In this document: piece by piece, positions 10,664 to 58,501 of the stretch
Layout of the letters: each line of letters begins with the position of its first letter
Numbering within the stretch: the stretch's first letter is position 1
Virus record (IMG/VR): IMGVR_UViG_3300045988_026548
Coordinates: 1 to 58,501 of that record
Source of the DNA: a virus
Strand: one strand, 5' to 3'
Length of the DNA: 58,501 nucleotides
Program-made: the position numbers and the translations under genes
The notes under the pieces: model-generated
What the model saw: the letters and a program-made list of their open reading frames with translations, nothing else
Told to the model about the DNA's origin: nothing
Database searches by the model: none

Positions 10664-10667
10664 TAAT

Positions 10668-11585: not shown

Positions 11586-11597
11586 AGGAGAACGACT

Positions 11598-11840: not shown

Positions 11841-11867
11841 AAGCGAATACAGAATCTAAGCGCATGG

Positions 11868-11890
11868 GCTGTCAGCAATGGCAGCTTTTT
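11868..11890 (+). terminator. Rho-independent terminator
   Basis: gctgtc-agcaat-ggcagc stem-loop followed by ttttt. Confidence 0.5.
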
Positions 11891-12032
11891 GCATATACGC
11901 GCAAAGAAGCCCTACAAACGCTTTTAGCGTCAGATGGCAAACTTATCGACAGAATACAGAAAATGGCTCTTGCACGGCTCTACGGGGCTGTGAGCGCATT
12001 GTAGAGGTCTACGACTATTGCAGGAGGAGAAA

Positions 12033-12746: not shown

Positions 12747-12849
12747 AGGTTCTTTCCCCCCTACAACCCTCTATCTCCAAAGCTACACCGTTAGCCAGCA
12801 GAGCAGAGCGTAAGTGAGAACTGGCGTGAGGTTCGGGCTAGTGGATGGT

Positions 12850-13501: not shown

Positions 13502-13574
13502 GCTGACCTCTATTGGATATCGGGCGAAAGCCCGAAAAGAGCTGCGGCGGTAGCCGCCAGTTGTTCCGCGCCGC

Positions 13575-13645
13575 CGTGCCAGGAAGAAAGCATAATGCTA
13601 GGCTAATGCCAGGCTAACCAGGTGCCAGGCTAATGCCAGGCGTGG
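13575..13645 (+). repeat. Short tandem repeat (A)ATGCCAGGCTA, 4 copies
   Basis: tgccagg at 13577, 13607, 13623, 13634; ggctaa at 13601, 13612, 13628. Confidence 0.75.
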
Positions 13646-14060
13646 GAAACATCAAAACCCCGCCGGGCTTGCATGGTCTGTGATCTGCCGCACCGTCTGG
13701 CATGGATCCATAACAGGGGCGCACCCCTGCGCCCTTATATACATTATTATAATAGGGCGGCTGTGCTGAGCTGTACAGCGTCCGGCGTGGCGCTTGTATC
13801 TGGTATATGCTGGAGGTGTTACGGCGTTGTGATACGCTCCAGCGTAGCGCAGGCGGTATTATAGCCGCTTGTACCGGTCTTGTATCGTGGGCGGTGGAAT
13901 GGGTGCAATTGCAGGAAACACCCCTGTAAAGCCCTGTGCGCTTTTTTGTGTTGTGGGCGGTATAACTGCATTGACTGCGCAAAACGCACTGTAAACGCTT
14001 GTATGTGGCTGTATTGCAACAGGGCAAAATAAAAGCCCTGCACCCTCAGCAGATGCAAGG

Positions 14061-14092
14061 CAAAAGAAAAGCCCCGCCAGCGTGGGCGGGGT
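14061..14092 (-). terminator. Rho-independent terminator of the minus-strand cassette
   Basis: ccccgcc/ggcgggg stem (14072-14091) followed on the minus strand by CTTTTCTTTT. Confidence 0.7.
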
Positions 14093-14097
14093 GGATA

Positions 14098-14253
14098 TTA
14101 TTTATTTTTTTCTTCAAGGTCTGCAAGGGCGGCGCAAAGCTCTTGCGTTTCTTCTTCTGTCAAGTCGTATTCCGTGCGGAGTTGGTCAGCGTCTGTGCTT
14201 CTCCATCCTCCATCATACAGGGCGGCGGCGCTGCTAGAAACGTCTTTTAACAT
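14098..14253 (-). CDS. Small hypothetical protein (51 aa, below the ORF-track cutoff)
   Basis: Hand translation MLKDVSSSAAALYDGGWRSTDADQLRTEYDLTEEETQELCAALADLEEKNK; RBS ggaaaagaggaaaacc upstream; terminator downstream. Confidence 0.55.
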   Translation of the reverse strand: MLKDVSSSAAALYDGGWRSTDADQLRTEYDLTEEETQELCAALADLEEKNK

Positions 14254-14482
14254 GGTTTTCCTCTTTTCCGGGCTTATACCCCTTTTTTACAGTATAGCAT
14301 ATCGCAAGCCCTAAAAACAGGACTTGCAGAAAGTTTTTTGTCCTTTTGGGCTGGGGCGGGGTTGCTTTATCCGGTGCAGCCCCGCTAAAGTGTCCGGCCG
14401 GTATCACTTGGATGCCTTAAACAGCGCAGAGAAAAACCAGAAGAAAAACAGGATGCAAGAAAATATCACCTGTTGCACCCCC

Positions 14483-14746
14483 TCAGACCACGTTAAAACG
14501 CTTGTATGTGGTGCGCTTGCTACACTCAGCATAAATATCCGGGTGCGCTACCTGCAAAAGTTTGCTATCAAGTCGGACGGAAGAAACATCCTTGTAAATG
14601 GCCTTTGCAGTGCCCTGCACCATTTCAGGCGCTCCCTGCATCATGGTGATTATATCGGCCTTGATTGCGTCATTCATTGCTTCTAATTCTTCCATGAGCC
14701 GCTTGTTTTCGCGGTATGCGTTTACTTTTTCTTCAAACGTCGTCAT
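14483..14746 (-). CDS. Hypothetical protein (coiled-coil N-terminus)
   Basis: aaggagggctaaaaaaATG RBS; MTTFEEKVNAYRENKRLMEELE...TTYKRFNVV. Confidence 0.6.
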   Translation of the reverse strand: MTTFEEKVNAYRENKRLMEELEAMNDAIKADIITMMQGAPEMVQGTAKAIYKDVSSVRLDSKLLQVAHPDIYAECSKRTTYKRFNVV

Positions 14747-14750
14747 TTTT

Positions 14751-15050
14751 TTAGCCCTCCTTAAAATATGTAACATCTTCAACCAAAATTCCGGCATCCC
14801 GTAGCAGAAAAGAAAAATGGTCGAAACTGTAGCGCGTCCAATCTTCACCAATAGAAACTGTGGTGGTTTGAGCCATGAACGGCGTTTTGAGCTTGTCCAA
14901 CTGTTCAAAGATAAAAGAAATCGTTTTGCGCGCTTTGGTTATAAATTCGCTGTCATTCGGTTCGTGTTCTTTCGTCCATGTCAGTTCTTGCACCCAAAAA
15001 GCAAGGGCATCCAGTTTTTTATACTGTTCGTGAGTAATTATAAGTGTCAT
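14751..15050 (-). CDS. Hypothetical protein
   Basis: ggagggcgaaaaaATG RBS at the internal ATG of ORF 14751-15065. Confidence 0.6.
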   Translation of the reverse strand: MTLIITHEQYKKLDALAFWVQELTWTKEHEPNDSEFITKARKTISFIFEQLDKLKTPFMAQTTTVSIGEDWTRYSFDHFSFLLRDAGILVEDVTYFKEG

Positions 15051-23320: not shown

Positions 23321-23398
23321 GTTGCATTAGCTCAGTCAGGCTAGAGCACCCGGCTCATAACCGGACATACATTGGTTCAAATCCATTATGCAGCACCA
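23321..23398 (+). tRNA. tRNA-Met(CAU): tRNA with CAT anticodon (Met, or Ile2/fMet type), CCA encoded
   Basis: Hand-folded cloverleaf: GTTGCAT/ATGCAGC acceptor, GCTC/GAGC D-stem, loop CTCATAA, T-loop TTCAAAT, 3' ACCA; one mismatch each in the anticodon and T stems. Confidence 0.75.
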
Positions 23399-35073: not shown

Positions 35074-35451
35074 ATGGAACTTGACCAGTACAATCCGATT
35101 CGGAGTGTGGATGGGCAGTATCTTAAATGCCCCTCTTCTTATCAGTGGCGGTTACAGGACATTTCGGCATCCGATGCCGGACGCACAGAGGATAACAAGA
35201 TGGACAAAAAACGTCTTGGACAGTGCGTCAAGCTAGAACTGGAATGGAAGTACACCACGATAAAAGAAGCCGCTGCTATCCTGAAAGCGTTCAACCCGGA
35301 ATACATCAACGTTACCTATCTTGATGCAATGGCTGGCGATTGGAAAACCAGCGAGTTCTACGTTGGCGACCGTGCTGTTCCGATGTACAATTCAAGGATG
35401 AATCGCTGGGAAGGGATATCTTTTAACATCATTGAAAGGGCTGCACACTGA
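35074..35451 (+). CDS. Distal-tail-region protein (small)
   Basis: Position after the tape measure. Confidence 0.4.
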   Translation: MELDQYNPIRSVDGQYLKCPSSYQWRLQDISASDAGRTEDNKMDKKRLGQCVKLELEWKYTTIKEAAAILKAFNPEYINVTYLDAMAGDWKTSEFYVGDRAVPMYNSRMNRWEGISFNIIERAAH

Positions 35452-37673
35452 TGGTCAATGTATCGCAAGATATCATAAAATCCTTCAACGAGGGCAACAA
35501 ACAGACTGCTCTTATTGAGGTTACTGCTGGCAGCAAGACGTTCACCATCACCGATGCAGATATCATTCAGGGCGGGTTGAAGATTGACCGGTACTGCGTG
35601 ACCAACAGCAAAATTGAGGTCGGCTCTGCGGTTGCGTCCGAACTGTCCTTGAAACTGCGAAACTACGATGGCAAGTTTAACGATGTTTCCTTTGAGGGCG
35701 CTGTCCTGAACGTCAAAATCGGCATCAAACTGTCCAGCGTCCTTGAGGGCGCAACGCTTGGCAAAGGCATTCTTGGGCGCATGATTCTTGGTTCTGCATC
35801 TTCCGATCAAGACGTTGCGTATGTTCCCTGTGGTTTGTTCATTGTGGACACGCCGCCAAGAAAGCTAAGCACTATAAGCATTTCTGCATTGGACTACATG
35901 GTCTTGTTTGACCGTGAGGTGAACGCTTCTGCCCTCTCTTTTCCTATTCATGTTGACGCGCTTATTCAAAAAATCTGCTCCATCTGCAATGTCACGCTTT
36001 CAACGGACGTTTCGGCGCTGCCAAACCACTATTTCAGCATCGGCGGTCTGCCGGATACTAACCAAAAGCTGACCTACCGCCAGCTCTTGCAATGGTGCGC
36101 ACAGCTTACCGGCACTTGCGCGTTCATGAATGGCAGCGGAAGGCTTGTGCTAAAATGGTATGAGCAGACCGGCGTGACCATTACCGCAAGTGAGCGCTAT
36201 TCCAGCGATATGTTGGAGAACGACATCACCATTACCGGCTTCACCTGTGACGATGGAAAGGGCAACACATACCTGTTTGGCACGGCAGATTACACGCTTG
36301 ACATAAGTGACTGCGGCTTCCTGACCAACGCCTACGAGGGTGTTTTGAAGGAACTGCAAGCTGCACGCGGCGGGTTTGCCTACCGCCCATATAGTGCCAC
36401 TATCAAGTCTGCACCGTATTTGTTCCCGCTGGACATGATACGCTACAAGGACAAAGATGGCGTTGTGCATGATACCATTGTCACCAACGTTACGCTTGCT
36501 TTGAACTGCAATACGGCGATTTCCGGCGCTGGCGAAACGGTCACGAGTTCTTCTTACGCGCAGTCTACAAGCGGCGTTACAAGCCAACAGGCGGCAACAG
36601 ACAGAGCAAACCTCGAAAAGATAAACCAGACCGCCACGCAGACGAACCAGACCAAGAACGACTTGACGCAGTTCAAGACGCAATATTCTTCCGATTTTGA
36701 AAAGACGCAAGCTGCCATTGAATCCCGCGTCACGAAGGAAACATACCAAACTGACATGGCTGGCGTTTCTACGCGTATCGGTGTAGCAGAAACAAAGATT
36801 TCTCAAAACGCTGATGCTATTACTCTGCGTGCAACAAAAGAAGAGCTTGCGACTGCAAAGTCTGACGCAATTAACAGCGCTGCTGCGGACGCCACAAGCA
36901 AAGCAACCGCAGCCGAAAGCAATGCAAAGTCTTACGCGGACGCGCAACTGAAAGTTACCAACGAAAAGATTGAAACAAAGGTTTCCAAGGGCGATATTGC
37001 TTCCACGATAAATCAGACTGCACAATCGGTGCAAATCGAAGCGTCCAAAATCAACCTGAAGGGCGCGGTAACGACTGAGGATATTTCCGCTGATGGTCTG
37101 AACGCAAAGGTGATTCAAGCCGGAACGATTACCGCAACGGAAATCAAAGCGGATACGATTACGGCTGGAAATCTTGCTTCTGGTCAAGTCATGGTCAAAA
37201 TTTGGGAGAACGCAAGCCAAGATTCTGCATTCCAGACACAAAATATCATCTTAAAAGATAATGCATGGTCGCAAATTATGTTTGTTTTTAATGGAGCAAA
37301 ATCAGAAAGCGTTAAAGTTGACGGTCAAACGTATAAAATTGGGATGCCAAACATCACTTATACAATTCCATGCCCTCATAGAGATGATACTTCATCGGTT
37401 GAGGTATATTACAGCGCTTCTGCCGTTGCTCCAGCAAGTGGTTCTCCTACGTTTGGCGCTTCATCGTTGCCTTTAATCGCAAGAAGGCTTTTTAGTGCTT
37501 GGAATGAATTAGAAAATGGGGAAAATCGAATATATTTTGTTTTTCAAGACGCAATGCTTTTATTCTTTAGTGGGGCATCTAGTACTCCATCTGATATTTC
37601 AAGCGGCAAAAAATATGGCAACCGTCTTGTTAATGAGTATATGATTCCAATTGCAGCTTATGGCATTAAATGA
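35451..37673 (+). CDS. Tail-associated / baseplate protein with central coiled coil
   Basis: 740 aa; N-terminus typical of siphophage tail proteins; long Ala/Thr/Gln coiled-coil segment. Confidence 0.6.
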   Translation: MVNVSQDIIKSFNEGNKQTALIEVTAGSKTFTITDADIIQGGLKIDRYCVTNSKIEVGSAVASELSLKLRNYDGKFNDVSFEGAVLNVKIGIKLSSVLEGATLGKGILGRMILGSASSDQDVAYVPCGLFIVDTPPRKLSTISISALDYMVLFDREVNASALSFPIHVDALIQKICSICNVTLSTDVSALPNHYFSIGGLPDTNQKLTYRQLLQWCAQLTGTCAFMNGSGRLVLKWYEQTGVTITASERYSSDMLENDITITGFTCDDGKGNTYLFGTADYTLDISDCGFLTNAYEGVLKELQAARGGFAYRPYSATIKSAPYLFPLDMIRYKDKDGVVHDTIVTNVTLALNCNTAISGAGETVTSSSYAQSTSGVTSQQAATDRANLEKINQTATQTNQTKNDLTQFKTQYSSDFEKTQAAIESRVTKETYQTDMAGVSTRIGVAETKISQNADAITLRATKEELATAKSDAINSAAADATSKATAAESNAKSYADAQLKVTNEKIETKVSKGDIASTINQTAQSVQIEASKINLKGAVTTEDISADGLNAKVIQAGTITATEIKADTITAGNLASGQVMVKIWENASQDSAFQTQNIILKDNAWSQIMFVFNGAKSESVKVDGQTYKIGMPNITYTIPCPHRDDTSSVEVYYSASAVAPASGSPTFGASSLPLIARRLFSAWNELENGENRIYFVFQDAMLLFFSGASSTPSDISSGKKYGNRLVNEYMIPIAAYGIK

Positions 37674-37684
37674 GGTGACGTTTT

Positions 37685-37879
37685 ATGATTGCACTAAACG
37701 TTGACAAAAAAACAAGTCGTGTCCTTAGTGCTTCGCTTCTCTTTAACGGCGCATCCATGCCTGGAAGCGTAGAGGTTGAAGCGCTGCCCGATGGCAATCT
37801 TTACGATTATCTGTATGTCAACGGGGAGTTCGTCTACTCCCCGATTGAAAAACAAGAAGAGGAGGTAACCTATCAATGA
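37685..37879 (+). CDS. Hypothetical tail-module protein
   Basis: 64-aa ORF in the operon. Confidence 0.45.
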   Translation: MIALNVDKKTSRVLSASLLFNGASMPGSVEVEALPDGNLYDYLYVNGEFVYSPIEKQEEEVTYQ

Positions 37880-38211
37880 GCTATCAAAAGCAGAACTTTG
37901 CAAACGGTGAAGTGCTTACCGCTCCGCAACTGAACCACATCGAGGACGGCATTGTGGACTTGGAAAGCAATTCAAGCACGGCGCTTGCTGGCAAAGCAGA
38001 TAAAACAGAAGTGCAAGCGAACGCAAAAAGCATTTCTGATGAAATTACCCGCGCCAAGAGCGAGGAGCAGCGCTTGGGCACCGCCATCACCGCCGAAACC
38101 GCCCGCGCGGAACAGGCAGAGCAAGCGCTCTCCGAGCGTACCGCAGCCCTCGAATCCTGCGGATTTGTCGTGGTTGACGGCAAGATCTGCATGAAATACC
38201 GCAAATCCTGA
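37876..38211 (+). CDS. Tail-fibre-like coiled-coil protein
   Basis: NFANGEVLTAPQLNHIEDGI N-terminus is common in tail fibres; coiled coil follows. Confidence 0.5.
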   Translation: MSYQKQNFANGEVLTAPQLNHIEDGIVDLESNSSTALAGKADKTEVQANAKSISDEITRAKSEEQRLGTAITAETARAEQAEQALSERTAALESCGFVVVDGKICMKYRKS

Positions 38212-38223
38212 AAGGAGTAACAC

Positions 38224-39507
38224 ATGGCTGAAAACGAAATTAGCACGCAGGCACCTGCCACTGAGGTGGTGGAGCCTATCTATCTGGACAAGACCGCAAA
38301 AGACAACGGCAAAAAGCTTGACCAGATGACCGCTGCCCTGCTAGGTATGTCCAGTTCGCTGGGCGTGATTGCACGGGCACAGACCGGCGTGGTGGAGGAG
38401 ATGGACTATAACGGCATCAAGGCCGTGGTGGCTGCCGGTAACGCACCGGCGGTTTTCCCGGTGGGCACCCAGCTTGTCAACACCTACACCGGCAAGGACG
38501 GCAAAGTCTACGACTGCCCGTGGGACGTGGTAAAGACGGACGATATCGCCGAGGGTGAGACCGGCACCACCGCACCCGCAATTGTGCTGCAGATGCACTA
38601 CGCATCTCTGGAAGATATCCAGTTTTCTGCATATCAGGCTTTCTATGTTGTGCCCGAGGCCGGTCTGGTGGCTGGCACTTACAACGTAAAGTTTGGTCTT
38701 GACTGGGGCGCCAACGTCAAGACCGGCACCACCTACCAGTTTACCCTGACCAAAAATGCGCCCGCTGGTGCACGCTTGACCGGCTTCTACAACGCCCCGG
38801 ATACTGCTCCCACCAGCTGGAAGGTCTACGTCTACAAAGACCAGAACAAGAGCGAACTGCTGGAGACCTGCAACGTCTCTGCCGGTGAAGCCGGTACCAA
38901 TCTGGGCACCTTCCTTGCTAAGCCCAACGGCAAGCTGAACGGCTTGCATCCCGTGGGCTACGGCGACAACCGGTGGTGGAAGTCCGCATACCGGCAGTAC
39001 CTCAACAGCGATGCAGCTGCCGGTGGGTGGTGGACTCCGCAGGATGAATGGGATATGAAGCCCGATCAGGCAGACACCGTGCCCGGCTTCCTTGCGGGCT
39101 TCTCTGATGACTTTAAGGCTGCCCTGACCCGCGTGAAGGTCGTGACCTACGGCAACACCGTCACCGATGACGGCAGCGCTGTGGTGACTTACGACAAGAT
39201 TTTTCTGCCCTCCCTGCAGGAGATCTACTGCTCGCCGCAGGTGTCCGGCGAGGGCACCGGCTACTGGCCTTACTGGAAAGAGCGCACCGGCGCAAAGACC
39301 CCGCAGGCTCTGTGGCAGACCTACCCGCTGCGCATCACCCGCGATCTTGCACAGCGCACTGTGGGCCGCTATGTGCGGCTGCGCTCTGCGAATCGTGGCG
39401 GCGGCAGCTATGCCTTCCGCGTGAACTCCAGCGGCGACGTCGGCGCCTGGGGCGCGGTCTACGCGTATCGCTGCGCCCCGGCTTGCGAAATGACCAATCT
39501 TAAATAA
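38224..39507 (+). CDS. DGR target protein (putative receptor-binding tail protein) with C-terminal variable region
   Basis: C-terminal GRYVRLRSANRGGGSYAFRVNSSGDVGAWGAVYAYRCAPAC corresponds to TR-encoded GRNVRLRSANRGNGNNAFNVNSSGNVNNWNAINANRCAPDW. Confidence 0.9.
   Translation: MAENEISTQAPATEVVEPIYLDKTAKDNGKKLDQMTAALLGMSSSLGVIARAQTGVVEEMDYNGIKAVVAAGNAPAVFPVGTQLVNTYTGKDGKVYDCPWDVVKTDDIAEGETGTTAPAIVLQMHYASLEDIQFSAYQAFYVVPEAGLVAGTYNVKFGLDWGANVKTGTTYQFTLTKNAPAGARLTGFYNAPDTAPTSWKVYVYKDQNKSELLETCNVSAGEAGTNLGTFLAKPNGKLNGLHPVGYGDNRWWKSAYRQYLNSDAAAGGWWTPQDEWDMKPDQADTVPGFLAGFSDDFKAALTRVKVVTYGNTVTDDGSAVVTYDKIFLPSLQEIYCSPQVSGEGTGYWPYWKERTGAKTPQALWQTYPLRITRDLAQRTVGRYVRLRSANRGGGSYAFRVNSSGDVGAWGAVYAYRCAPACEMTNLK
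39362..39485 (+). repeat. DGR variable region (VR)
   Basis: Aligned by eye to 39985-40108: 106 of 124 identical; all 18 mismatches fall on TR adenines. Confidence 0.9.
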
Positions 39508-39533
39508 TCACCGGGCAATCCCTTGCCCGGTGA
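39508..39533 (+). promoter_or_regulatory. Perfect 11-bp-stem hairpin just 3' of VR (DGR target-recognition hairpin and/or terminator)
   Basis: tcaccgggcaa-tccc-ttgcccggtga begins 1 nt after the target stop codon. Confidence 0.7.
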
Positions 39534-39551
39534 GAAAGTGAGTGCTATCCC

Positions 39552-39962
39552 ATGGCAATGCGCAAAGACCAGATACCGGACAATAAATTCACGCTGCCGC
39601 TTGACGCGCGTGAGCTGGCACTGTATACCAGACAGATCACCAAAAACGCGAAAGTGTTTGACCTCGGGATTGACGCAAGTCTTCCCGGCCAGCTACGCGC
39701 TACGGCAGACCGGATATTTTTTGATATCTTCGGAGCAAACGACCTCCGGCTGGACAAGCCGAACGAAAGAGAGGAGCGCTTTAAGCTTCAAAGGCACGCC
39801 GTCCGGCTGTGCACCGTCCTTTTGGCGGAGATAGACATGGCAAAAGCCAGCTATCACCTTTCTGGCAAACGGTGCTCTTTCTGGGGCAACACTGTGCGCG
39901 ATATCCGGCAGCGTTGCCGGGACTGGCACGAGAGTGATGCAAAGCGTGCAAAAGCGCTTTGA
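39552..39962 (+). CDS. avd: DGR accessory variability determinant (four-helix-bundle protein)
   Basis: 136-aa basic helical protein between VR and TR; position and size match Avd. Confidence 0.75.
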   Translation: MAMRKDQIPDNKFTLPLDARELALYTRQITKNAKVFDLGIDASLPGQLRATADRIFFDIFGANDLRLDKPNEREERFKLQRHAVRLCTVLLAEIDMAKASYHLSGKRCSFWGNTVRDIRQRCRDWHESDAKRAKAL

Positions 39963-39984
39963 CATAAAAATGGCTGTAGGCTAA

Positions 39985-40108
39985 TGGGCCGCAATGTGCG
40001 GCTGCGCTCTGCGAATCGTGGCAACGGCAACAATGCCTTCAACGTGAACTCCAGCGGCAACGTCAACAACTGGAACGCGATCAACGCGAATCGCTGCGCC
40101 CCGGATTG
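39985..40108 (+). repeat. DGR template repeat (TR)
   Basis: Non-coding copy of VR, rich in AAC/AAT triplets at the variable positions. Confidence 0.9.
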
Positions 40109-40264
40109 GACGGCAGCACGCCCACAAAAGCCCCTGCATAGCAGAGGCCGGGCAAAAACTGCCGTGCAAGGAGCCGAGTGCCATGTCTGTCCTCTGGCAG
40201 ACGAACAATATCAGCCGGACGTGGCCACCCTGCGGGGTGTTGACCGCTATCACCCGGCAGATCC

Positions 40265-41329
40265 TTGCGAGGAGAGCTGAAAAAATCAGTGCAAGAAGAA
40301 GAAATAATAATCGGGTTCGATGCCCTGTATAATTCCGAGGGCAAGTGCGCCAAAGGCGTGTGCCGCAAGGCAAGCGTTGGACGGTTTCACCTGTTTCGGA
40401 TGGACGAGATCCTGAAACTCCAAAAGGAGCTCGCGACAGGTACATACAAGGCACGGCCAACAATCAAAGTTAGAATCACCTATCCCAAGCCCCGCACAGC
40501 GGTTGCGAATGGCTTTCGGGATAGGGTATACCAGCGCTCTCTCAACGACAATGCTGTTTATCCAGCAATGACACGGAGTTTCATCCGGCAAAACGCGGCC
40601 TGTCAGACCGGCAAAGGTACCGACTGGGCGCGCAAGCAGGTCAAGCTCATGATGGAGCGCGAATACCGGCAACACGGCGCTGATGGCTATGTGCTGTTGG
40701 TAGATATCCGGCACTATTACGACACGATGCCCCATGACGTGGCAAACCGCTGCTTTGAGCGGCATCTGCCGCCAAGTGTGCATAACCGCGTGCGTGAGGT
40801 GCTGGATCGTCAATATACCGGCGAGGCCGGTTATAATCCGGGCAGCCAGATGGTGCAGCTTGCCGGGATCTCGGTGCCCGACCCCATAGATCACTACATC
40901 AAGGAGCGCCTGCGGGCGAAAAAGTACGTCCGTTTTATGGATGATAGCCTCATCATCCACCACGACAAGGCACGGCTTGAGGAGTGGCGGGAGGCGATCC
41001 GCGCCCGGTACGCTGCCGATGGCATGGAGCTGCACCCGACCAAGACCAAGATCGTCAGGCTAAAGGATGGATTCCGTTTTCTAGGTTTCATCTACCGCTT
41101 GACCCCGGCGGGCAAGGTCGTTATGACCGTTGACCCGCAGAACGTCAAGGCCGAGCGCAAGCGCCTGTTTCGGCTTGCCCAGCTCATCAAGGCAGGAGAG
41201 AAACCGGCATCTGCCCTGTATGAGCAGTATGGATCATGGAAAGCCCATGCCGCTAAAGGCAACTCCAAAAAGCTGCTGCAGCGCATGGATCAATATGTTA
41301 AAACTCTGCTGGAGGGGATAACGACATGA
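40265..41329 (+). CDS. DGR reverse transcriptase
   Basis: RT motifs incl. VLLVDIRHYYDTM and YVRFMDDSLI (YxDD box), LHPTKTKIV; start TTG 40265 or GTG 40289. Confidence 0.9.
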   Translation: MRGELKKSVQEEEIIIGFDALYNSEGKCAKGVCRKASVGRFHLFRMDEILKLQKELATGTYKARPTIKVRITYPKPRTAVANGFRDRVYQRSLNDNAVYPAMTRSFIRQNAACQTGKGTDWARKQVKLMMEREYRQHGADGYVLLVDIRHYYDTMPHDVANRCFERHLPPSVHNRVREVLDRQYTGEAGYNPGSQMVQLAGISVPDPIDHYIKERLRAKKYVRFMDDSLIIHHDKARLEEWREAIRARYAADGMELHPTKTKIVRLKDGFRFLGFIYRLTPAGKVVMTVDPQNVKAERKRLFRLAQLIKAGEKPASALYEQYGSWKAHAAKGNSKKLLQRMDQYVKTLLEGITT

Positions 41330-41493
41330 AAATTGTTCGCAACACTGGCGGCATCAAGACCGCCGCCGAAAACGAGAACCGGGACGCGGATTTGGCACAG
41401 ATCGCGTCTATGGTAGATTTCCTGTGCATTCTGGCCGATGTGCCCATTGAGGACGAGGCCGCAGACAAGGAGGGCATGAGCCATGAGCGATAA
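41326..41493 (+). CDS. Small hypothetical protein (55 aa)
   Basis: ATGA overlap with the RT stop; MKIVRNTGGIKTAAENENRDADLAQIASMVDFLCILADVPIEDE... Confidence 0.45.
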   Translation: MKIVRNTGGIKTAAENENRDADLAQIASMVDFLCILADVPIEDEAADKEGMSHER

Positions 41494-41635
41494 GTACAGC
41501 GCGATCTTCGGCAAAGCGAAAGACGAGTACGAGGCGGGCCGCTGGTCTAAGGCTATGCTGCGCATCCTTGTGCAGCGCAAGCCCCAGCGCCTGACCGCAG
41601 AGGAGTACGAAGAGATCACCGGCGAAAAGTATTAA
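41483..41635 (+). CDS. XkdX-family protein (50 aa)
   Basis: MSDKYSAIFGKAKDEYEAGRWSKAMLRILVQRKPQRLTAEEYEEITGEKY; ...LTAEEYEEITG ending typical of XkdX, upstream of the lysin. Confidence 0.6.
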   Translation: MSDKYSAIFGKAKDEYEAGRWSKAMLRILVQRKPQRLTAEEYEEITGEKY

Positions 41636-41645
41636 GGAGCAGAGT

Positions 41646-42326
41646 ATGAGACCTATCATGGATGTTTCCCGCTTTCAGGGCAGCATCGACTGGGACAAGG
41701 TCAAGGCAAGCGGCCTTGTCTCCGGTGTGATGCTTAAAGCCGTGTCCACAAACCGCAAGCTGAGCAAGCGCAAGGATGGGCTGTACATTGACCCAACGTT
41801 TGAGCGCAACTACGCCGAGTGCAAGCGCGTTGGTCTGCCGGTTGGCGTATACTACTACACCTACGCCACCGATAAAGAGATGGCAGACGCAGAGCTTGCC
41901 TTGCTCAAGACTGCCTTGACCGGAAAAACCTTTGAGTTACCCATCAGCGTGGACGTTGAGGACAACAAAATCAAGAAGCTGTCCACGCAGTCGCTAACCG
42001 ACCTTGCCGCCTATGCGCTTGATACGGTAGAGCGCTGGGGCTTTTATGCCCTGCTGTATGTCGGACTAAATTTTGCGCAGACGGAGTTGTACATGGGTGG
42101 CGCGGCGCTCAAGCCTTATGACGTGTGGCTGGCTGCCTACCGCAGCAAAAAGCCTGAACCGGGCTGGCCGTTCGGCTTGTGGCAGTACACCAGCAAGGGC
42201 AAGATTCCTGGCGTTGTGGACGCGATACCGGGCAAGATTTCCGGTGTGGACTTGTCTGTGCCCTACAAGGACTACGCTAAAATCATCGCAAAGAAGGGTC
42301 TGACCCGTCTCCGGGAGGGCGCATGA
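41646..42326 (+). CDS. Endolysin, GH25 muramidase
   Basis: MDVSRFQGSIDWDKVK, VYYYTYA, VDVE, WLAAY, LWQYTSKGKIPGV...VDLSV. Confidence 0.88.
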   Translation: MRPIMDVSRFQGSIDWDKVKASGLVSGVMLKAVSTNRKLSKRKDGLYIDPTFERNYAECKRVGLPVGVYYYTYATDKEMADAELALLKTALTGKTFELPISVDVEDNKIKKLSTQSLTDLAAYALDTVERWGFYALLYVGLNFAQTELYMGGAALKPYDVWLAAYRSKKPEPGWPFGLWQYTSKGKIPGVVDAIPGKISGVDLSVPYKDYAKIIAKKGLTRLREGA

Positions 42327-42580
42327 GCGAAGCAATCATCGTGGCAATCATCACCGGCGGTCTGAGCCTGATCGGCGCGATCGTCTCCAACAACCACACC
42401 GCCCAGAGTATGGACGCTAAGTTGGACAAGCAGCAGGCCGTCACTGAAACCAAGCTGGAAGATCTGACCCGCGAAGTTCGGGCGCACAACAACTTTGCCC
42501 AGCGCATCCCGGTGCTGGAAGAACAAATCAAGGTGGCAAACCACCGCATCGAAGATCTCGAAAAAGAGAGAGGAGAGTAA
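42323..42580 (+). CDS. XhlA-like membrane protein
   Basis: N-terminal TM helix followed by a coiled coil ending ...VANHRIEDLEKE. Confidence 0.55.
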   Translation: MSEAIIVAIITGGLSLIGAIVSNNHTAQSMDAKLDKQQAVTETKLEDLTREVRAHNNFAQRIPVLEEQIKVANHRIEDLEKERGE

Positions 42581-42583
42581 CAC

Positions 42584-42925
42584 ATGGAAACCATTCTTAA
42601 CACCATTCTCACCCCGCTGCCCTCGTGGCTGGCACTGGTGCTCATCGTTGTGGGCGCTGTGTCGCTTGTGCTGGGGCTTATCCGTCTGGGCTACGGCGCA
42701 GCGGTCAGGACGCTGGTGCTTGACCTCATCGACCAAGCAGAACATGAGATTCAGGGCACCAAGCGCGGCGCAGAGCGCAAGGCATGGTGCGTCAAAATGC
42801 TGCGCCACTATCTGGACAACAGCCGGTGGGGCAAGCTAGTCTCGTGGGCAATTACCGAAGAGACCATGAGCAAGGTCATCCAGTTTTTCTTTGACCGGGC
42901 ACGAGCGGCACTGCAAAAGCAGTAA
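42584..42925 (+). CDS. Holin (LL-H-like)
   Basis: N-terminal TM helix, then ...GTKRGAERKAWCVKML... as in LL-H holins; lysis-module position. Confidence 0.55.
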   Translation: METILNTILTPLPSWLALVLIVVGAVSLVLGLIRLGYGAAVRTLVLDLIDQAEHEIQGTKRGAERKAWCVKMLRHYLDNSRWGKLVSWAITEETMSKVIQFFFDRARAALQKQ

Positions 42926-42935
42926 GGAGGATATC

Positions 42936-43118
42936 ATGGCAAGCACTACATACGAGCAGAAACGATTTTGTGAAATCAAGAGATGCGGCAAAATCGACCA
43001 TCTCGGTAACGTCCCTGTAATGGTGCGCAACGCCGGAGAGCTGCCGCAGCCTTTCTGGCTCGGCATTGCTCATGGCGGCGGCTCGTGTAGTGCTGCCCGC
43101 TGCGCTGCAAGGACTTGA
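42936..43118 (+). CDS. Hypothetical protein; possibly the N-terminal part of a split regulator
   Basis: Strong taaggaggatatcATG RBS; overlaps the next ORF by 53 nt in another frame. Confidence 0.4.
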   Translation: MASTTYEQKRFCEIKRCGKIDHLGNVPVMVRNAGELPQPFWLGIAHGGGSCSAARCAART

Positions 43119-43311
43119 CCGGCAGAGGATGATCGCCGCCATCAAGAACGCACCGCTTGGGAGGGTTGACCGTAAGATAGCCTTACTGCGGTACGTTGAG
43201 CGGCTTCCGCTGCCGGACATTGCAGCGCAAACACATTATAGCCGGACGGCAATCAGCTACCGGCTGAAAGGCATTGATTTGATTTTGGAGGAATCGAATG
43301 GTTGTAGGTAA
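43066..43311 (+). CDS. Sigma-70 region-4-like HTH protein (ArpU/RinA-like late regulator candidate)
   Basis: IALLRYVERLPLPDIAAQTHYSRTAISYRLKGI resembles region 4 HTH; no RBS of its own. Confidence 0.4.
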   Translation: MLMAAARVVLPAALQGLDRQRMIAAIKNAPLGRVDRKIALLRYVERLPLPDIAAQTHYSRTAISYRLKGIDLILEESNGCR

Positions 43312-47506: not shown

Positions 47507-48079
47507 TTAATCCTCCAAGAAATCCTCCAATTCAATCTTTCCTTCTGCCGCCGCAACCGCCAGAGCGTACACGAACTGTCCAATCGTCATTCCGTGCCGT
47601 CTGGCTTCACGGTTGATGTACTTGCGCTCTTCCTCGCTCATAAGGATGGTAATGCGCTTGGAACGCTTGCCATCGCCACTTGCAACGCCCTGATGTGATT
47701 CCGGCATCGGGATTTTTTTCTTTGTCAGACCAGCTTCAGCTAGTGCGCCGGGAACATCGCCTTGTTCGATAAGACGTTGAACTTCCTTTGCCTGTTTCAG
47801 CTTCTTTGGCTTACTTTCGCTTACTACGGCATTGTTCGGCTGTGTTTCGCTGTCTTTGGCTTGCTTCGGCTTAATATCGCTTAACTGTGCTTCATTAGGC
47901 TGTGTACGGCTGTCTGTGGCTTCATTAGGCTTAATCAATGCTTGTTCGGCTTCGTTCGGCTTCGCTTGGCTTACTTCTTCTTCCTTTGGCTCACTTCGGC
48001 TTAATGTCTGTTCCGAAAAAATAGGCTGAAAATCAAACCCGCCAAGCAAACCTGAGGATTTTTTGCTGGTCGATTTCAT
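47507..48079 (-). CDS. RHH DNA-binding protein with 10-aa tandem repeats (candidate centromere-binding ParG/ParR-like protein)
   Basis: C-terminal KRITILMSEEERKYINREARRHGMTIGQFVYALAV fits ribbon-helix-helix; six xxxKPNEAxx repeats; same operon as parA. Confidence 0.5.
   Translation of the reverse strand: MKSTSKKSSGLLGGFDFQPIFSEQTLSRSEPKEEEVSQAKPNEAEQALIKPNEATDSRTQPNEAQLSDIKPKQAKDSETQPNNAVVSESKPKKLKQAKEVQRLIEQGDVPGALAEAGLTKKKIPMPESHQGVASGDGKRSKRITILMSEEERKYINREARRHGMTIGQFVYALAVAAAEGKIELEDFLED
47801..48000. repeat. Array of 20 consecutive decamers, TTnnTTnGGC type (10-bp-phased GGCT)
   Basis: 14 of 20 decamers end in GGC, 3 in CGC, 1 in TGC; 30-bp super-period; lies inside CDS 47507-48079. 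Confidence 0.85.
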
Positions 48080-48603
48080 TCTGTGTCAGCCTCCTCATAA
48101 TCCGAATCTTCAAAGGACGGAGCTTCTGGTAGCGGCATCCAATGCGTCGCTCCAAGATTATTACACCAATCTGTTTTCCAAATAGGTTTACCACCGTCTT
48201 CTGGATAGAAGTAACACTGTGCAATATCTGTTCCTGTCAACGGCGATGCAACGAGGACGGGATTGCTTTCAAGTTCTCCGTTTATATCCACCATTTCTGG
48301 GTAGTGGTCGCTCACTTTAATCCATTCCTTGCTCCATAACCATTTTTCCTTGAAATATTGTACATCCTTCTTATACTGCTCTTTATCAGTGTCGCCACTT
48401 CTGTACCAATCACAGCTATGCAAAACACAAAGCAAATCGTACAGAAGCATACTCAAATCTTTGTCTCCAAGCGGATTTTCTTCTCGTGCAATAATCGAAA
48501 GCTCTTTTACACGTTCATCTGCAAGGCCATAATCTGGGTAGCAATGCTGATAAATAGCATTTGCAAGGCTGTCATTTTGATAATCCCAATGTCCACCGCT
48601 CAT
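48076..48603 (-). CDS. Protein with DUF551-like C-terminus
   Basis: C-terminal ATHWMPLPEAPSFE; overlaps both neighbours by 4 nt. Confidence 0.6.
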   Translation of the reverse strand: MSGGHWDYQNDSLANAIYQHCYPDYGLADERVKELSIIAREENPLGDKDLSMLLYDLLCVLHSCDWYRSGDTDKEQYKKDVQYFKEKWLWSKEWIKVSDHYPEMVDINGELESNPVLVASPLTGTDIAQCYFYPEDGGKPIWKTDWCNNLGATHWMPLPEAPSFEDSDYEEADTE

Positions 48604-49370
48604 TTTTCTTCTCCTTCTACAATAATCTCTGCCAACGCCTTGAAGTCCTCTGCGCTTGTGCTCTTTGCCGTGTCGCCGCTAAACAGGCTGTGCCGCTCTG
48701 CCTGCGCCTTACGAACGCCCATAGACGGTCTAATCTTCACATCCAACAGCGTTGTACCCATACTCTGTGCAATCACCGGAAGCTGCTCCACAACCTCTTT
48801 GGACAGGTTCTCCCGGCTCTTGTACTGGTTCAAAAGCAGACCTTCAATCTTCAAAGTTGGGTTGAAATATCTGCGAACATCTCCGATTGTCTGCGAAAGC
48901 TGGCTCAAACCAGCCAGTGCATATCGGTCTGCTGTGATTGGCACGATAATACTGTTGGCGGCGATCAGCGCGTTCACAAGCGCAAGACCAAGCTGCGGGG
49001 GAGTGTCCAGCACAATGTAATCATACTGACCAGACACGCTTTCAAGGGCTTCTCGTAGCCGGAAGTTCTTGCCCATGTCCCGGACGAGCTGTTCATCAAT
49101 GTCCTTCAATGCGTTGTCAGACGGCAGAATGTCACCGGCTTCACAGTGCTGGATTCCTTCTTCGACCGTACCTTGCCGTGTCATCACATCGAACAGGGTG
49201 CATACGTCCTCTGTCTGTGCGCCGTAGGTGTCCGTTGCGTTGCACTGGGCATCGCAGTCCACCAGCAGGACTTTCTTGCCAAGCAACTGCAACGCACCAG
49301 CCAGACAGGTGCTTGTGGTGGTCTTTCCTGTGCCGCCCTTCTGGTTGGCGACAGCTATGATTTTTGCCAT
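48600..49370 (-). CDS. parA: ParA/Soj-type partition ATPase
   Basis: MAKIIAVANQKGGTGKTT deviant Walker A; LLVDCDAQCN; YDYIVLDTPP. Confidence 0.9.
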   Translation of the reverse strand: MAKIIAVANQKGGTGKTTTSTCLAGALQLLGKKVLLVDCDAQCNATDTYGAQTEDVCTLFDVMTRQGTVEEGIQHCEAGDILPSDNALKDIDEQLVRDMGKNFRLREALESVSGQYDYIVLDTPPQLGLALVNALIAANSIIVPITADRYALAGLSQLSQTIGDVRRYFNPTLKIEGLLLNQYKSRENLSKEVVEQLPVIAQSMGTTLLDVKIRPSMGVRKAQAERHSLFSGDTAKSTSAEDFKALAEIIVEGEEK

Positions 49371-49387
49371 TTTATCACTCTTTCTTT

Positions 49388-49669
49388 TTAGTAGAACGGC
49401 CATGCTGCTTTTATCTCGTCTCCGACCCACAACACAGGCGTGACGTGCCATGCAATTACAGTTTCTTTGATTTCATTACTATCGGAATCAAACCATTTGC
49501 CGTTGATTGTATCGTACTCGCCGGTTATGAAACTTTTTTCTCCTGTTTTCTCATCTTCGATACGAAGTAAAAGCCCATGCGGCCATCCTTCTAGGCTTTT
49601 ATCCGGCATAACATCTTTAGTCATGTACCACTTGTCTTTGTCAAAACCTTTCGGAAACATTGGAACCAT
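49388..49669 (-). CDS. Hypothetical protein (weak DUF551-like end)
   Basis: 93-aa ORF between rep and parA. Confidence 0.5.
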   Translation of the reverse strand: MVPMFPKGFDKDKWYMTKDVMPDKSLEGWPHGLLLRIEDEKTGEKSFITGEYDTINGKWFDSDSNEIKETVIAWHVTPVLWVGDEIKAAWPFY

Positions 49670-49714
49670 ACTCTTTCTCCTTTCTGCATTATCTGCTCAA
49701 TGTGCTACATCTGA

Positions 49715-50836
49715 CTACTTCAAGAAGCTATCATCAAACGTAGCATAATCGTCAAGGTCTGCTTCTTTCAAAATTGAGTACATATAAGCGCCGGGGTCTT
49801 TTTCAATCCTATCAAGTCGCTCGCTGACTAGAATCCTGTATGCATTCTCAATGATATTCACAACAGCTTCTTTTTTCTTGTTAGGCTTGATGTTCGGATA
49901 CTTCTCCGGCAATCTCTTTGCCACCAGCTTTGCGGTCAAGATACACTGGTTTTTAGACATCTCCGGTGCAATAGATGCCCAATCCACATCCTCGTATGCG
50001 CCGCTACGGGGCTTTCTGGCAGGTCGTTGGCTCTTTGGAACATCTTTTAGCTCTACGCTTTCAACCTCGTTAGCTTCCACGTCTATGACTGGCTCATTAG
50101 ACTTGAAAGCCACATTGAACTTCACAGCAACCGCATTGCGACCTCTCATGACCTTGTCATATTCAACGCACAGGTCTGATACTTCGTTTATTTCAGCTAC
50201 CGCAATATCAATGACACGCCGCCTAAGATGCTTGAACTCTTGATAACTAGGTTCTCTTGCACCAAGCTGTTCCCTTAATCTATCCAACGTAATTTCGGGC
50301 TGGCTCACGCCACGCCCAATAAACTCTCGGAGAATCGAATACAACAAAATGCTATACTGCGATTTCATATTTGCTGTGTAGCGTAAACGGTACTTGACAT
50401 ATCCACGCTCCGCAATGTCGAAGAAAACAGGTTGCAGAAGCGGATTGCAACACAATGACACAGTAATATTCATTAAACTAGGTTCAAAGTTTACAGTTGC
50501 TCTACTGAACAGGGGATACAAGTCAAACGAGCCTGAACCGTCACCTCTAGGAACTTCAACAGAGTTGTCGATGAAATGCTTAACCTGTGCTTTCAAATTC
50601 CTAGAGTTGATTTTCAACCCCAGAAATTCGCAATATTCTTGTAACGTAAACTGAACCGTTGAAGTTTCAGGGTCTCTCGGATTGATACGGCTAAGATAAA
50701 CTTCAAGTAACCGTAGTTCTCCTGCTGTATAATCAGTGAACTTTGCCCAAACAAGCTGTCTGCTTTTTTCAACCAAGTTCCCGCCTTTAATATCAGACAA
50801 TCTTATCACGCCTCCTCTCGTATAAGAGTATATCAC
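49715..50836 (-). CDS. rep: Rep_3/RepB-family plasmid replication initiator
   Basis: LVWAKFTDYTAGELRLLEVYLSRI..., KYRLRYTANMKSQYSILLYSILREF, IDIAVAEINEVSDLCVEYDKVMRGRNAVAVKFNV; a TTG at 50800 has the better RBS spacing. Confidence 0.85.
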   Translation of the reverse strand: MIYSYTRGGVIRLSDIKGGNLVEKSRQLVWAKFTDYTAGELRLLEVYLSRINPRDPETSTVQFTLQEYCEFLGLKINSRNLKAQVKHFIDNSVEVPRGDGSGSFDLYPLFSRATVNFEPSLMNITVSLCCNPLLQPVFFDIAERGYVKYRLRYTANMKSQYSILLYSILREFIGRGVSQPEITLDRLREQLGAREPSYQEFKHLRRRVIDIAVAEINEVSDLCVEYDKVMRGRNAVAVKFNVAFKSNEPVIDVEANEVESVELKDVPKSQRPARKPRSGAYEDVDWASIAPEMSKNQCILTAKLVAKRLPEKYPNIKPNKKKEAVVNIIENAYRILVSERLDRIEKDPGAYMYSILKEADLDDYATFDDSFLK

Positions 50837-51378: not shown

Positions 51379-51972
51379 TCATCCAGTTATATTATTTGGA
51401 TTTACGGTATAGGAATCATTGGACTTCATAGCAGCTTCCGTTCCAGCATCCTGCGCCTGATAGAGAATTTCCATCTTTGGGGCGGTACCGTTCGGGTCTG
51501 GGTCTGTTCCGGTGGCCTGTGCCATCTCATAGCTACCAGACACCATCCGGCAGACAGCGACCCTGTCCTTCAACGGCGTGTGGAGGTTTGCCAGAATCTC
51601 CGTCAACACGCCGATATGGTCTGAACCGTGATCTCCGTACCGGATGTACAGCAGGGCGTCTATCTCATAGGAAGAACACTCCATCATAGCATCTATGAGA
51701 ATCCGCCGTTTTTCCATGTCGGAAGGGTCGTCCTCAAGGTGTTCAAGTAGTCCCGGATGAATACAAGCGTCCATGTATCGAGCGACCGATACGCCGCAGC
51801 AGGTAAACCAGCGCATAGCCATTGGAAGGGAAATGGCTGCCAGACCTTGCTCCCAATTTGCTATCGTGCCACGATTTACGCCCATTCTTGCCGCCAATTT
51901 CTGCTGGCTCAAGCCGGAATGCATTCGCGCCATCTCTAATGCTTTGGCTGTTCTTACCAAATATTCATCCAT
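51379..51972 (-). CDS. XRE-family HTH regulator with C-terminal domain
   Basis: MHSGLSQQKLAARMGVNRGTIANWEQG HTH. Confidence 0.7.
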   Translation of the reverse strand: MDEYLVRTAKALEMARMHSGLSQQKLAARMGVNRGTIANWEQGLAAISLPMAMRWFTCCGVSVARYMDACIHPGLLEHLEDDPSDMEKRRILIDAMMECSSYEIDALLYIRYGDHGSDHIGVLTEILANLHTPLKDRVAVCRMVSGSYEMAQATGTDPDPNGTAPKMEILYQAQDAGTEAAMKSNDSYTVNPNNITG

Positions 51973-54006: not shown

Positions 54007-54768
54007 ATGAACGACATTATTTTATCCATGCAAAATGGCGAGCCTGTGGTTTCCAGCCGTCAGATTGCAGAGAGCTTCGAGAAGCGTCATGACCATGTGA
54101 TGCGTGACATCGAAGACATTATGAGGGGTCTCCCCAAAAATGGGGACACCCCCATGTTCTACAAGACCGAGTACGTCCATGAGCAGAACGGCCAGAGCTA
54201 CCCCATGTATCTGATGAACCGTGACGGCTTCACCCTGCTGGCTATGGGCTTTACCGGCAAGGCTGCTCTCGAGTGGAAACTGAAATACATTGCAGCGTTC
54301 AACGAGATGGAAAAGAAGCTGACCGAACAACCGCAACTTACCCGCTCGCAGCTCCTTGCAACTGCGCTGATCGCAGCGCATGAGGAGCTGGAGGAGAAGG
54401 ACAAGCGGATTGCAGAACTTACGCCGAAGGGCGTTTTTGCTGACGCGGTGAGCGCAAGCAGCCAGAGCATTCTTGTTGGTGAAATGGCAAAGCTGCTGTC
54501 ACAGAACGGCATCCAGATGGGGCAGAACCGCTTGTTCTCATGGCTGCGTGAGAACGGATATCTGATTAAGGACAGAAAGCGGACGGACTACAATATGCCG
54601 ACCCAGAAGTCTATGGAACTTCGCTTGTTTGAAATCAAGGAAACGTCCATTGCACATTCCGATGGGCACACTTCTATCAATAAGACCCCGAAGGTGACGG
54701 GTATCGGTCAGGTCTATTTCGTTAATCTCTTCTTAAAGACGGAGAAGAGCAAGAAAGTGGAGGACTGA
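54007..54768 (+). CDS. Rha-family regulator fused to a KilAC/antirepressor domain
   Basis: VVSSRQIAESFEKRHDHVMRDI and ...YLMNRDGFTLLAMGFTGKAALEWKLKYIAAFNEME (Rha); C-terminal ...ILVGEMAKLLSQNGIQMGQNRLFSWLRENGYL. Confidence 0.8.
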   Translation: MNDIILSMQNGEPVVSSRQIAESFEKRHDHVMRDIEDIMRGLPKNGDTPMFYKTEYVHEQNGQSYPMYLMNRDGFTLLAMGFTGKAALEWKLKYIAAFNEMEKKLTEQPQLTRSQLLATALIAAHEELEEKDKRIAELTPKGVFADAVSASSQSILVGEMAKLLSQNGIQMGQNRLFSWLRENGYLIKDRKRTDYNMPTQKSMELRLFEIKETSIAHSDGHTSINKTPKVTGIGQVYFVNLFLKTEKSKKVED

Positions 54769-58177: not shown

Positions 58178-58501
58178 TGGACAACAGCAAAATCCATGAA
58201 GCTCTGATGGCTGTTCAGTCAGAGTTGAAAGCCCCGAAGGGGCAGATGAACAAATTTGGTGGCTACAAGTACCGCTCGTGTGAGGACATCCTTGAAGCGG
58301 TCAAGCCCATCTTGAAAGCGCATAGCCTTGTGCTGCGGCTTTCCGACAAGCCTGTTATCGTGGACAGTTGGCACTACATCGAAGCCACTGCAACTGTTGA
58401 ATCGCAGGATGGAGCCACCTATACGGTGACTGCATACGCTCGTGAGCCTGAATTTAAGAAGGGCATGGACGATTCGCAGATTACCGGCACTGCAAGCAGC
58501 T
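58177..58501 (+). CDS. erf: ERF-family recombinase, 5' part (continues at window position 2)
   Basis: ATGA overlap with the upstream stop; MDNSKIHEALMAVQSELKAPKGQMNKFGGYKYRSCEDILEAVKPIL is the ERF N-terminus. Confidence 0.8.
   Translation, partial: MDNSKIHEALMAVQSELKAPKGQMNKFGGYKYRSCEDILEAVKPILKAHSLVLRLSDKPVIVDSWHYIEATATVESQDGATYTVTAYAREPEFKKGMDDSQITGTASS

Follow-up and report, generated by a model that had tools for sequence, protein, structure and literature searches.

An apparently functional BPP-1-type diversity-generating retroelement recoding the C-terminal DUF6273 domain of a probable host-binding protein in a human-gut phage genome

Introduction

Diversity-generating retroelements (DGRs) of the type found in Bordetella phage BPP-1 are defined by mutagenic homing that is specific to adenines, together with the order target, avd, template repeat and reverse transcriptase. 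Guo et al. found that a hairpin near the variable repeat (VR) of BPP-1 is needed for efficient homing, with a stem that works as a structure and a loop (GRNA) whose effect depends on its sequence (PMC3240598). GC-rich hairpins or cruciforms of this kind occur in DGRs with a stem of 7–10 bp, the loop GRNA and a distance of 4–34 bp from the VR (PMC3240598). On the RNA side, a short stem-loop together with unpaired adenosines is part of the ‘cPRT Stop’ that places the BPP-1 RNA on the complex of its reverse transcriptase (RT), bRT, with Avd (bioRxiv 10.1101/2023.10.23.563531). DGRs that target DUF6273 proteins are known in phages of Faecalibacterium and other gut Clostridia, namely Lelie, Roos, Pioen, CP11 and Toutatis-like phages, and include target2 of nd4 and nd12; in these published gut-phage DGRs the VR lies at the C-terminus of DUF6273 (PMC11792537; bioRxiv 10.1101/2024.10.15.618418; PMC10743442), and a further report belongs to the same group (bioRxiv 10.64898/2026.05.08.723808). 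A C-type-lectin fold has been reported for DUF6273 by others (PMC10743442). Horizontal transfer of DGRs and their atypical GC content are already documented (PMC5758913).

Here we describe the DGR of IMG/VR virus record IMGVR_UViG_3300045988_026548, whose full 58,501 nucleotides we refer to as the window. An original prediction, made from the letters of the DNA alone, had proposed a complete DGR of the BPP-1 type in the order target, avd, template repeat (TR) and RT. We find all of its testable parts in place and, in related natural copies, diversification at the codons that carry TR adenines, and we consider it very likely that the element is a functional BPP-1-type DGR. The closest published group is the DUF6273-targeting DGRs of phages of Faecalibacterium and other gut Clostridia.

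Results

The VR/TR pair and its diversification in natural copies

When the two repeats were realigned, VR and TR, which are offset by 623 nt, matched along 124 nt with no gap, and all 18 mismatches between them fell opposite adenines of TR, such that 18 of its 29 adenines are altered in VR and none of the 18 mismatches (0/18) lies at a non-A position. This agrees in every respect with the alignment first proposed, as does the count of 13 in-frame AAY codons in a TR that had been described as packed with them. The probability of placing 18 of 18 mismatches on 29 adenines by chance is 1.7e-14 (hypergeometric), and each of the 18 occupies codon position 1 or 2 of the target coding sequence (38224–39507). 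A search of both strands of the window in which adenine positions were ignored found no second VR. One of the 18 differences counted in the original prediction stands apart, at position 39482, where TR has A and VR has C; because C is found there in 35 of 36 related VRs, this mismatch reads as a fixed difference between IMH (initiation of mutagenic homing) and IMH*, and not as a product of mutagenesis.

To follow diversification at the population level, assemblies were compared with one another, standing in for the mapping of reads within a sample. A homologue search with the target returned 120 proteins that are 91–97% identical and come from many independent metagenome assemblies. Across these proteins the mean entropy is 0.12 bits over residues 1–379 and 0.97 bits over residues 380–421, and it exceeds 1.5 bits only at residues 383, 390, 393, 395, 396, 399, 401, 405, 407, 408, 410, 412, 413 and 415. 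These 14 residues coincide one for one with the TR codons whose first base is A (13 AAY and one ATC), and the amino acids seen at them are those that NNY (or NTC) codons can encode.

The same pattern is found at the nucleotide level. IMG/VR holds 69 loci with a related RT, and 55 loci in all have both repeats. When 37 distinct VRs were each compared with their own TR, 594 substitutions were counted at 1052 A sites (A>G 315, A>T 160, A>C 119) against 10 at 3536 non-A sites. The VR is nearly unique to each contig, with 37 distinct sequences among the 38 compared. One adenine, that of the AGC codon at 39430 (Ser403), is never altered in the compared VRs, presumably due to selection. Non-A polymorphisms of TR are copied faithfully into VR, and lineage-specific TR variants that are non-A or fixed recur in the cognate VRs: C43T with A44T (L002, L003, L059 and L043), A95G with A104T (L025 and L027) and A8G with A9G (L013 and L033). 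Since the cognate VR carries the TR base of its own lineage, these variants fit the prediction of one-way transfer from TR to VR. The confinement of diversification to TR-adenine codons in natural copies indicates that the DGR is active, or was so very recently.

The IMH-like end of VR and the post-stop hairpin

VR and TR share a GC-rich run of 13 nt at their 3′-ends (39469–39481 in VR; CGCTGCGCCCCGG). The fixed C at position 39482, with A in TR, follows it and marks the start of a VR-specific, IMH-like segment; beyond 39485 the two sequences are unrelated.

The hairpin that had been noticed at the stop codon of the target was recovered with its 11-bp stem and 4-nt loop, and its predicted folding energy of −14 kcal/mol compares with −4.2 kcal/mol for shuffled sequences (z = −6.05). 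It lies 22 nt beyond the end of the VR homology. Relatives whose RTs have 46–50% identity possess VR/TR pairs of their own that are likewise adenine-specific, and they carry a hairpin in the same place with different 9-bp GC stems and 4-nt loops, where the stems are GCCGGCCGA/TCGGCCGGC in one group and GCCGCCCGA/TCGGGCGGC in another, a compensatory G/C swap, and the loops are TTCC or CACC compared with TCCC in the window. By analogy, the hairpin would match the target-recognition element shown for BPP-1 (PMC3240598). We also considered an intrinsic terminator and rejected it on the + strand, where the hairpin has no T-run downstream; a terminator scan flags the hairpin only on the − strand, owing to the A-rich stop region.

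The target protein

Pfam DUF6273 matches the target at residues 242–413 (E 1.7e-11), such that VR makes up the end of that domain. The family is large, with 1601 cluster representatives at E ≤ 0.001, and consists of a core of ∼360 residues (roughly 60–422) fused to N-terminal parts of widely varying length. An AlphaFold2 model of the target (pLDDT 91) has a disordered N-terminus, a helix at residues 23–53, a beta-rich middle domain and the C-terminal DUF6273 domain, which modeled alone reaches a pLDDT of 94.

A Foldseek search of the PDB gave one significant match, the Thomasclavelia ramosa IgA peptidase 9qa6, at E 5e-6 with the full target model and 1.2e-5 with the domain (query-normalised TM-score 0.69 for the domain). 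The matching region of the target is 38929–39504 (residues 236–427). The N-terminal domain of this peptidase is itself DUF6273 and is dispensable for IgA recognition and cleavage; for that reason, we rejected the likeness as a clue to the ligand. Among viral models (BFVD), the Foldseek neighbours are DUF6273 phage proteins, together with a small number of proteins that bear the name tail-collar fibre or receptor-binding protein. At the sequence level, the target has no match in a search of the PDB, no detectable similarity to Mtd in pairwise comparison, and no Ig-like repeat domain detected in a Pfam scan.

Upstream of the target gene are the genes for tape measure, distal tail and tail tip, and downstream of it are those for lysis. 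By analogy with BPP-1, where the neighbourhood is the same, the protein is most likely located at the tail tip, where it would bind the host surface, and a receptor-binding role is probable. The original prediction of a tail or receptor-binding protein is thus favored by its genomic neighbourhood and structural neighbours, while one of its family labels, to which we return below, leaves room for a decoration or adhesin role.

Reverse transcriptase, accessory protein and structured RNA

The profile search that had been suggested as a check of the RT matched Pfam RVT_1 and PHROG 1423 (E 2e-68), with the models of group II and defence RTs far under their cut-offs. Among solved proteins, 8ub7_A is the best relative (E 1.9e-15, residues 21–343); this 328-aa ‘Reverse transcriptase’, which we take to be the bRT of BPP-1, is followed by a group II maturase at 2.2e-7. 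The protein has the catalytic FMDD box (RFMDDS), and PGSQM(V/I)Q stands at the place of IGSLTSQ in bRT, with the Gln kept and the Ser not. While the original call of an RT with this box stands, its start at TTG 40265 probably does not: in related contigs, gene callers place the start of the RT at the GTG equivalent to 40289, which is most likely the start here also.

The 136-aa ORF (open reading frame) between VR and TR, described at first as helical and Avd-like, matches PHROG 3206 ‘Avd protein of DGR’ over nearly its full length (residues 3–135, E 2.1e-7). The same family takes in BPP-1 Avd (8.8e-29) and the ORFs that occupy the Avd position in five relatives. A homologue search with the Avd-like protein returned close relatives only, none of them annotated.

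The spacer that separates TR from RT combines a stem of three tiers, capped by a GCAUAGC loop, with a ACAAGGAGCCGAA block that does not vary and a variable stem-loop, after which GAACAA is again invariant. From 11 aligned spacers, RNAalifold predicted 29 pairs, 16 of which have compensatory changes, and 94.6% of cells are paired in this consensus compared with 38–42% when the partners are slid, a value reached by 0 of 500 shuffles. The last stem-loop with its GAACAA resembles the stem-loop plus adenosines of the BPP-1 ‘cPRT Stop’ (bioRxiv 10.1101/2023.10.23.563531). An RNAduplex search for primer:template and avd:spacer duplexes returned long, uninterpretable ones and did not identify the priming nucleotide.

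Directly 5′ of TR (39970–39984) we additionally observed a GTAGGCTA block that is conserved at equivalent sites in L004, L063, L064, L068 and L070, clades whose RTs are only ∼50% identical. Its pairing partner was not identified, and it may be part of an upstream RNA segment needed for cDNA synthesis.

TR variants in related cassettes

Of 47 close cassettes, 23 have a TR unlike the majority form, and nearly all of the changes are A-to-N. The TRs with few changes (1–4) are in some cases common to independent contigs with different VRs (e.g. L025/L027, L013/L033 and L005/L011), and these variants look real and inherited. In the TR of L025 and L027, the changed positions 95 (A95G) and 104 (A104T) flank intact A98 and A99, where the VRs differ from TR, a pattern which makes path-switching during assembly unlikely. 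Another eleven contigs have TRs with 6–18 changes (L007, L010, L014, L028, L034, L037, L043, L045, L050, L059 and L060; TR lies at about 5721–5844 in each locus). Those of L014, L060 and L050 are block mosaics of their own VR, and those of L007, L010 and L043 resemble another VR variant. Assembly chimeras, gene conversion from VR to TR, or occasional homing into TR are possible sources. It is conceivable, though we think it rather improbable, that TR is not fully protected and that its adenines are occasionally overwritten, whether through homing of mutagenised cDNA or through gene conversion from VR. Such overwriting would gradually freeze the variable codons and erode the mutagenic capacity of the element itself.

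Table 1. Positions of the DGR parts and of the genes around them in the window
Feature	Position	Strand	Remarks
Small ORF, 111 aa	37876–38211	+	Weak match to PHROG 2012 ‘minor tail protein’
DGR target gene, 427 aa	38224–39507	+	Pfam DUF6273; PHROG 19280 and 10993
VR	39362–39485	+	Mutagenised part 39370–39467 (codons 383–415)
IMH-like VR 3′-end	39469–39507	+	GC-rich 13-nt run shared with TR, then TR-unlike sequence
DNA hairpin/cruciform	39508–39533	+	11-bp stem, 4-nt loop TCCC; starts at first base after TAA stop (39505–39507)
Avd-type accessory gene, 136 aa	39552–39962	+	PHROG 3206
TR	39985–40108	+	29 adenines, 13 in-frame AAY codons; same sequence in 24 of 48 related cassettes
Spacer from TR to RT, structured part of DGR RNA	40109–40288	+	Covariation
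DGR reverse transcriptase	40289–41329	+	346 aa from GTG 40289; 354 aa from TTG 40265; RVT_1, PHROG 1423
Small ORFs, GH25 endolysin (41646–42326), two holin-sized ORFs	41326–42925	+	Pfam Glyco_hydro_25, PHROG endolysin
ParA-like ATPase	48600–49451	−	Part of plasmid-style set 47507–50836 (−)
Plasmid-type Rep initiator	49715–50836	−	Homologues in 2362 PLSDB records

Genome context and the mobile cassette

The first and last 119 bases of the window (1–119 and 58383–58501) are identical, which makes it a complete genome of ∼58.4 kb that is circularly assembled or terminally redundant. Related contigs of 58–61 kb are common in IMG/VR. The virion module comprises terminase, portal, major head protein and tape measure genes, then a DUF6711 protein (35074–35451) and a 740-aa tail protein (35451–37673), after which come two small ORFs, the DGR, further small ORFs, a GH25 endolysin and two holin-sized ORFs. 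The G+C content of the DGR region is 56–58% compared with 44–50% for most of the genome.

The DGR appears to move as part of a larger unit. In L002 (a 133.7-kb ENA contig, 9789–14699) and L005 (an NCBI assembly contig, 9791–14707), the cassette has 91–92% nucleotide identity to 38014–42925 of the window, with similarity also at 43020–43277, and the rest of these loci is unlike the window, including a different tape measure and tail-tip protein. An SmpB gene near the downstream end of the L002 locus suggests that L002 is an integrated prophage. About 20 of 48 close IMG/VR loci share the upstream tail genes of the window, and the others share the cassette only. The lysis-region ORFs, though outside the DGR mechanism, thus travel with the DGR as one module of ∼5 kb.

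The left junction of the cassette is inside ORF 37876–38211, where nucleotide similarity begins at 38014. The C-terminal 64 aa of this ORF share 81% identity with the C-terminus of a 185-aa L002 protein, and the N-termini are unrelated. This ORF could be an adaptor, in which the N-terminus fits the tail of the backbone and the C-terminus holds the target. A third group of loci, with RTs 82–84% identical, shares only 38272–41632 and includes a Faecalibacterium metagenome-assembled genome (RT 84%). This suggests hosts of the Faecalibacterium kind for the cassette, which need not be those of the window phage. Just past the shared lysis genes, L002 has a 64-aa ORF (14704–14898) with an Acb2/Tad1 hairpin domain (PF24729, an anti-defence sponge family). 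The window probably lacks this ORF, because the nucleotide alignment skips L002 14704–14898.

The original prediction had also placed the DGR on a plasmid-like prophage. In accordance with this, the genome has a ParA-like ATPase and a plasmid-type Rep, an HTH (helix-turn-helix) repressor and an anti-repressor beside this plasmid-style set (51379–51972, −, and 54007–54768, +), the identical 119-bp ends, and no family match to an integrase among the scanned ORFs of at least 300 aa. A plasmid-like lysogenic state is plausible on these grounds. The plasmid-style set also holds a protein with a weak NikA-like match, and a PLSDB megablast with the replication/partition arm found no nucleotide match.

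Three further features were observed away from the DGR. A RAGATH-5 RNA (RF02685) in the early/replication region (14345–14397, −) is a full-length Rfam match at 62.5 bits compared with a gathering threshold of 50 (E 6e-8) and is a candidate ribozyme-class RNA. A tRNA-Met (CAT) lies between the terminase and portal genes (23321–23398, +), and a radical SAM domain protein (10668–11585, +; PHROG 9298, E 8e-97) directly follows a DnaB-like helicase.

Discussion

The arrangement described above could operate as follows. A complex of RT and Avd would bind an RNA that runs from the end of avd through TR and the structured spacer; as carried over from the BPP-1 model, this RNA would prime its own reverse transcription, with random misincorporation opposite adenines. 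The resulting cDNA would take the place of VR in the target gene, with guidance from the GC-rich IMH-like 3′-end of VR and from the post-stop hairpin, whose role in homing is likewise taken from BPP-1. The outcome would be the recoding of 14 codons (13 AAY and one ATC), or some 10^16 possible peptides, toward the end of the C-terminal DUF6273 domain of a probable tail-tip host-binding protein, where the tail location and the receptor binding also follow the BPP-1 model.

Several observations weigh against a functional DGR of this type that diversifies a tail protein. The hairpin loop TCCC is off the GRNA consensus on the sense strand, and in BPP-1 the loop sequence matters. The RT has PGSQMVQ at the site of the usual (I/L/V)GxxxSQ. 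The Avd-like protein, unlike the Avd of BPP-1, fails to match Pfam bAvd; it has no pairwise likeness to BPP-1 Avd, with a probability of 0.1% in profile comparison; and it has no solved-structure relative in the PDB, including in a search with a 7-sequence Avd profile. The C-type-lectin fold that had been anticipated for the last part of the target found no confirmation in the fold searches: with both the full AlphaFold2 model and the C-terminal domain, Foldseek gave no significant match to C-type lectins, Mtd or TvpA, as genuine C-type lectins appear only at E 4–6 over ∼40 columns and Mtd and TvpA are absent from the matches. The tail location is made insecure by a match of residues 245–423 to PHROG 10993, ‘Hoc-like head decoration’. 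Finally, activity is deduced from differences between assemblies.

The Hoc-like label raises an alternative in which the target is not the primary receptor-binding protein but an accessory adhesin or decoration protein, a DUF6273 protein of the tentaclin or Hoc-like kind whose ligands would be glycans, either bacterial or from the gut environment. In that case the DGR would tune adherence and not host range. The targets of published DUF6273 DGRs do include tentaclins and a secreted Hoc-like protein (PMC10743442; bioRxiv 10.64898/2026.05.08.723808), and the sole solved structural neighbour of our target, from a gut-bacterial IgA peptidase, is an N-terminal DUF6273 domain. In contrast, the Ig-like repeat domains are not detected in this target, and its gene has tail-tip genes on one side and lysis genes on the other, the place of mtd in BPP-1. 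The gene is also transferred together with the C-terminus of the small tail-module ORF before it, and some BFVD neighbours of the target bear the name tail-collar fibre or receptor-binding protein. We regard an accessory adhesin as unlikely, if still the most serious competitor to a receptor-binding protein at the tail tip.

The differences among VRs could also reflect past activity in the lineage, with the DGR in the window genome being a recently inactivated relic. The TRs of some related contigs have lost many adenines, so decay may occur in this lineage. In the window, however, every ORF is intact and TR has the majority form with all 29 adenines, matching 24 other copies, while the RT is 99–100% identical to that of dozens of copies, each with a different VR, with full identity in, for example, L006–L010, and the 38 VRs compared include 37 distinct ones. 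A relic is for these reasons very unlikely, compared with an element that is active or was so very recently. That the RT belongs to a retron, group II intron or defence system, with a VR/TR repeat that is coincidental, is close to excluded, since the NCBIfam scores that would favor it (group II RT/maturase at 74.8 bits with a cut-off of 300, and weak matches to Drt3a, Drt5 and Drt2 with cut-offs of 200, 550 and 390) are all far under the curated cut-offs, Rfam at its gathering threshold finds neither group II intron nor retron RNA in the window (only RAGATH-5 and one tRNA), the best solved relative 8ub7_A is taken as the DGR RT bRT, and the adenine pattern (P ∼ 1e-14) is seen again in dozens of copies.

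This locus leaves what is known of the DGR mechanism unchanged, and targets of the DUF6273 type in Faecalibacterium-type phages have already been described. Its value lies in the dozens of public assemblies that contain this cassette in nearly identical form, each with its own VR, in which the variation maps codon-for-codon onto the TR adenines. The phage lineage could thus provide a handy system for the study of DGR retargeting in gut phages, of retargeting during plasmid-like carriage, and of the movement of a module made up of target, DGR and lysis genes.

As in the published DUF6273 DGRs, the window is of human-gut origin and has its VR at the C-terminus of DUF6273. Compared with the named DUF6273-DGR phages, its RT is 31–37% identical and its target 30–40% identical over parts of its length. 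Unlike these phages, the window has a single target, no Ig-like ‘tentaclin’ partner and a ParA/Rep backbone. A megablast of the DGR against GenBank phages gave no nucleotide match. The closest GenBank phage record is MT835491.1, a 59.5-kb uncultured gut phage from human faeces (Mexico), with an RT that is 48.5% and a target that is 42% identical. This unannotated record is a distant relative, with nucleotide-level similarity to the window only in TR; it has the same order of target, avd, TR and RT at nearly the same genome position, with a VR/TR pair of its own.

In all respects that were testable, the element works as the BPP-1 DGR does. Compared with BPP-1, the window has the same order of tail fibre, target (mtd in BPP-1), avd, TR, RT (brt in BPP-1), small ORFs and endolysin. 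In both, VR is at the extreme 3′-end of the target and TR is an AAC-rich repeat of ∼124–134 nt, a GC-rich run closes the VR/TR homology, and just past the stop codon is a GC-rich hairpin with a loop of 4 nt. Both Avd proteins belong to PHROG 3206, and the best solved relative of the window RT, 8ub7_A, is identified as bRT. The hairpin, however, has 8 bp and a GAAA loop in BPP-1 compared with 11 bp and TCCC in the window. Mtd, with its own fold family, and the DUF6273 target have no detectable sequence similarity, and the Avd of the window, unlike that of BPP-1, is without a Pfam bAvd match. The RTs are 25% identical, with PGSQMVQ in the window and IGSLTSQ in BPP-1, and BPP-1 has an integrase, whereas the window phage has ParA and Rep and no recognisable integrase. 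We consider the departures from BPP-1 in loop sequence, RT motif, divergent Avd and ParA/Rep backbone to be minor.

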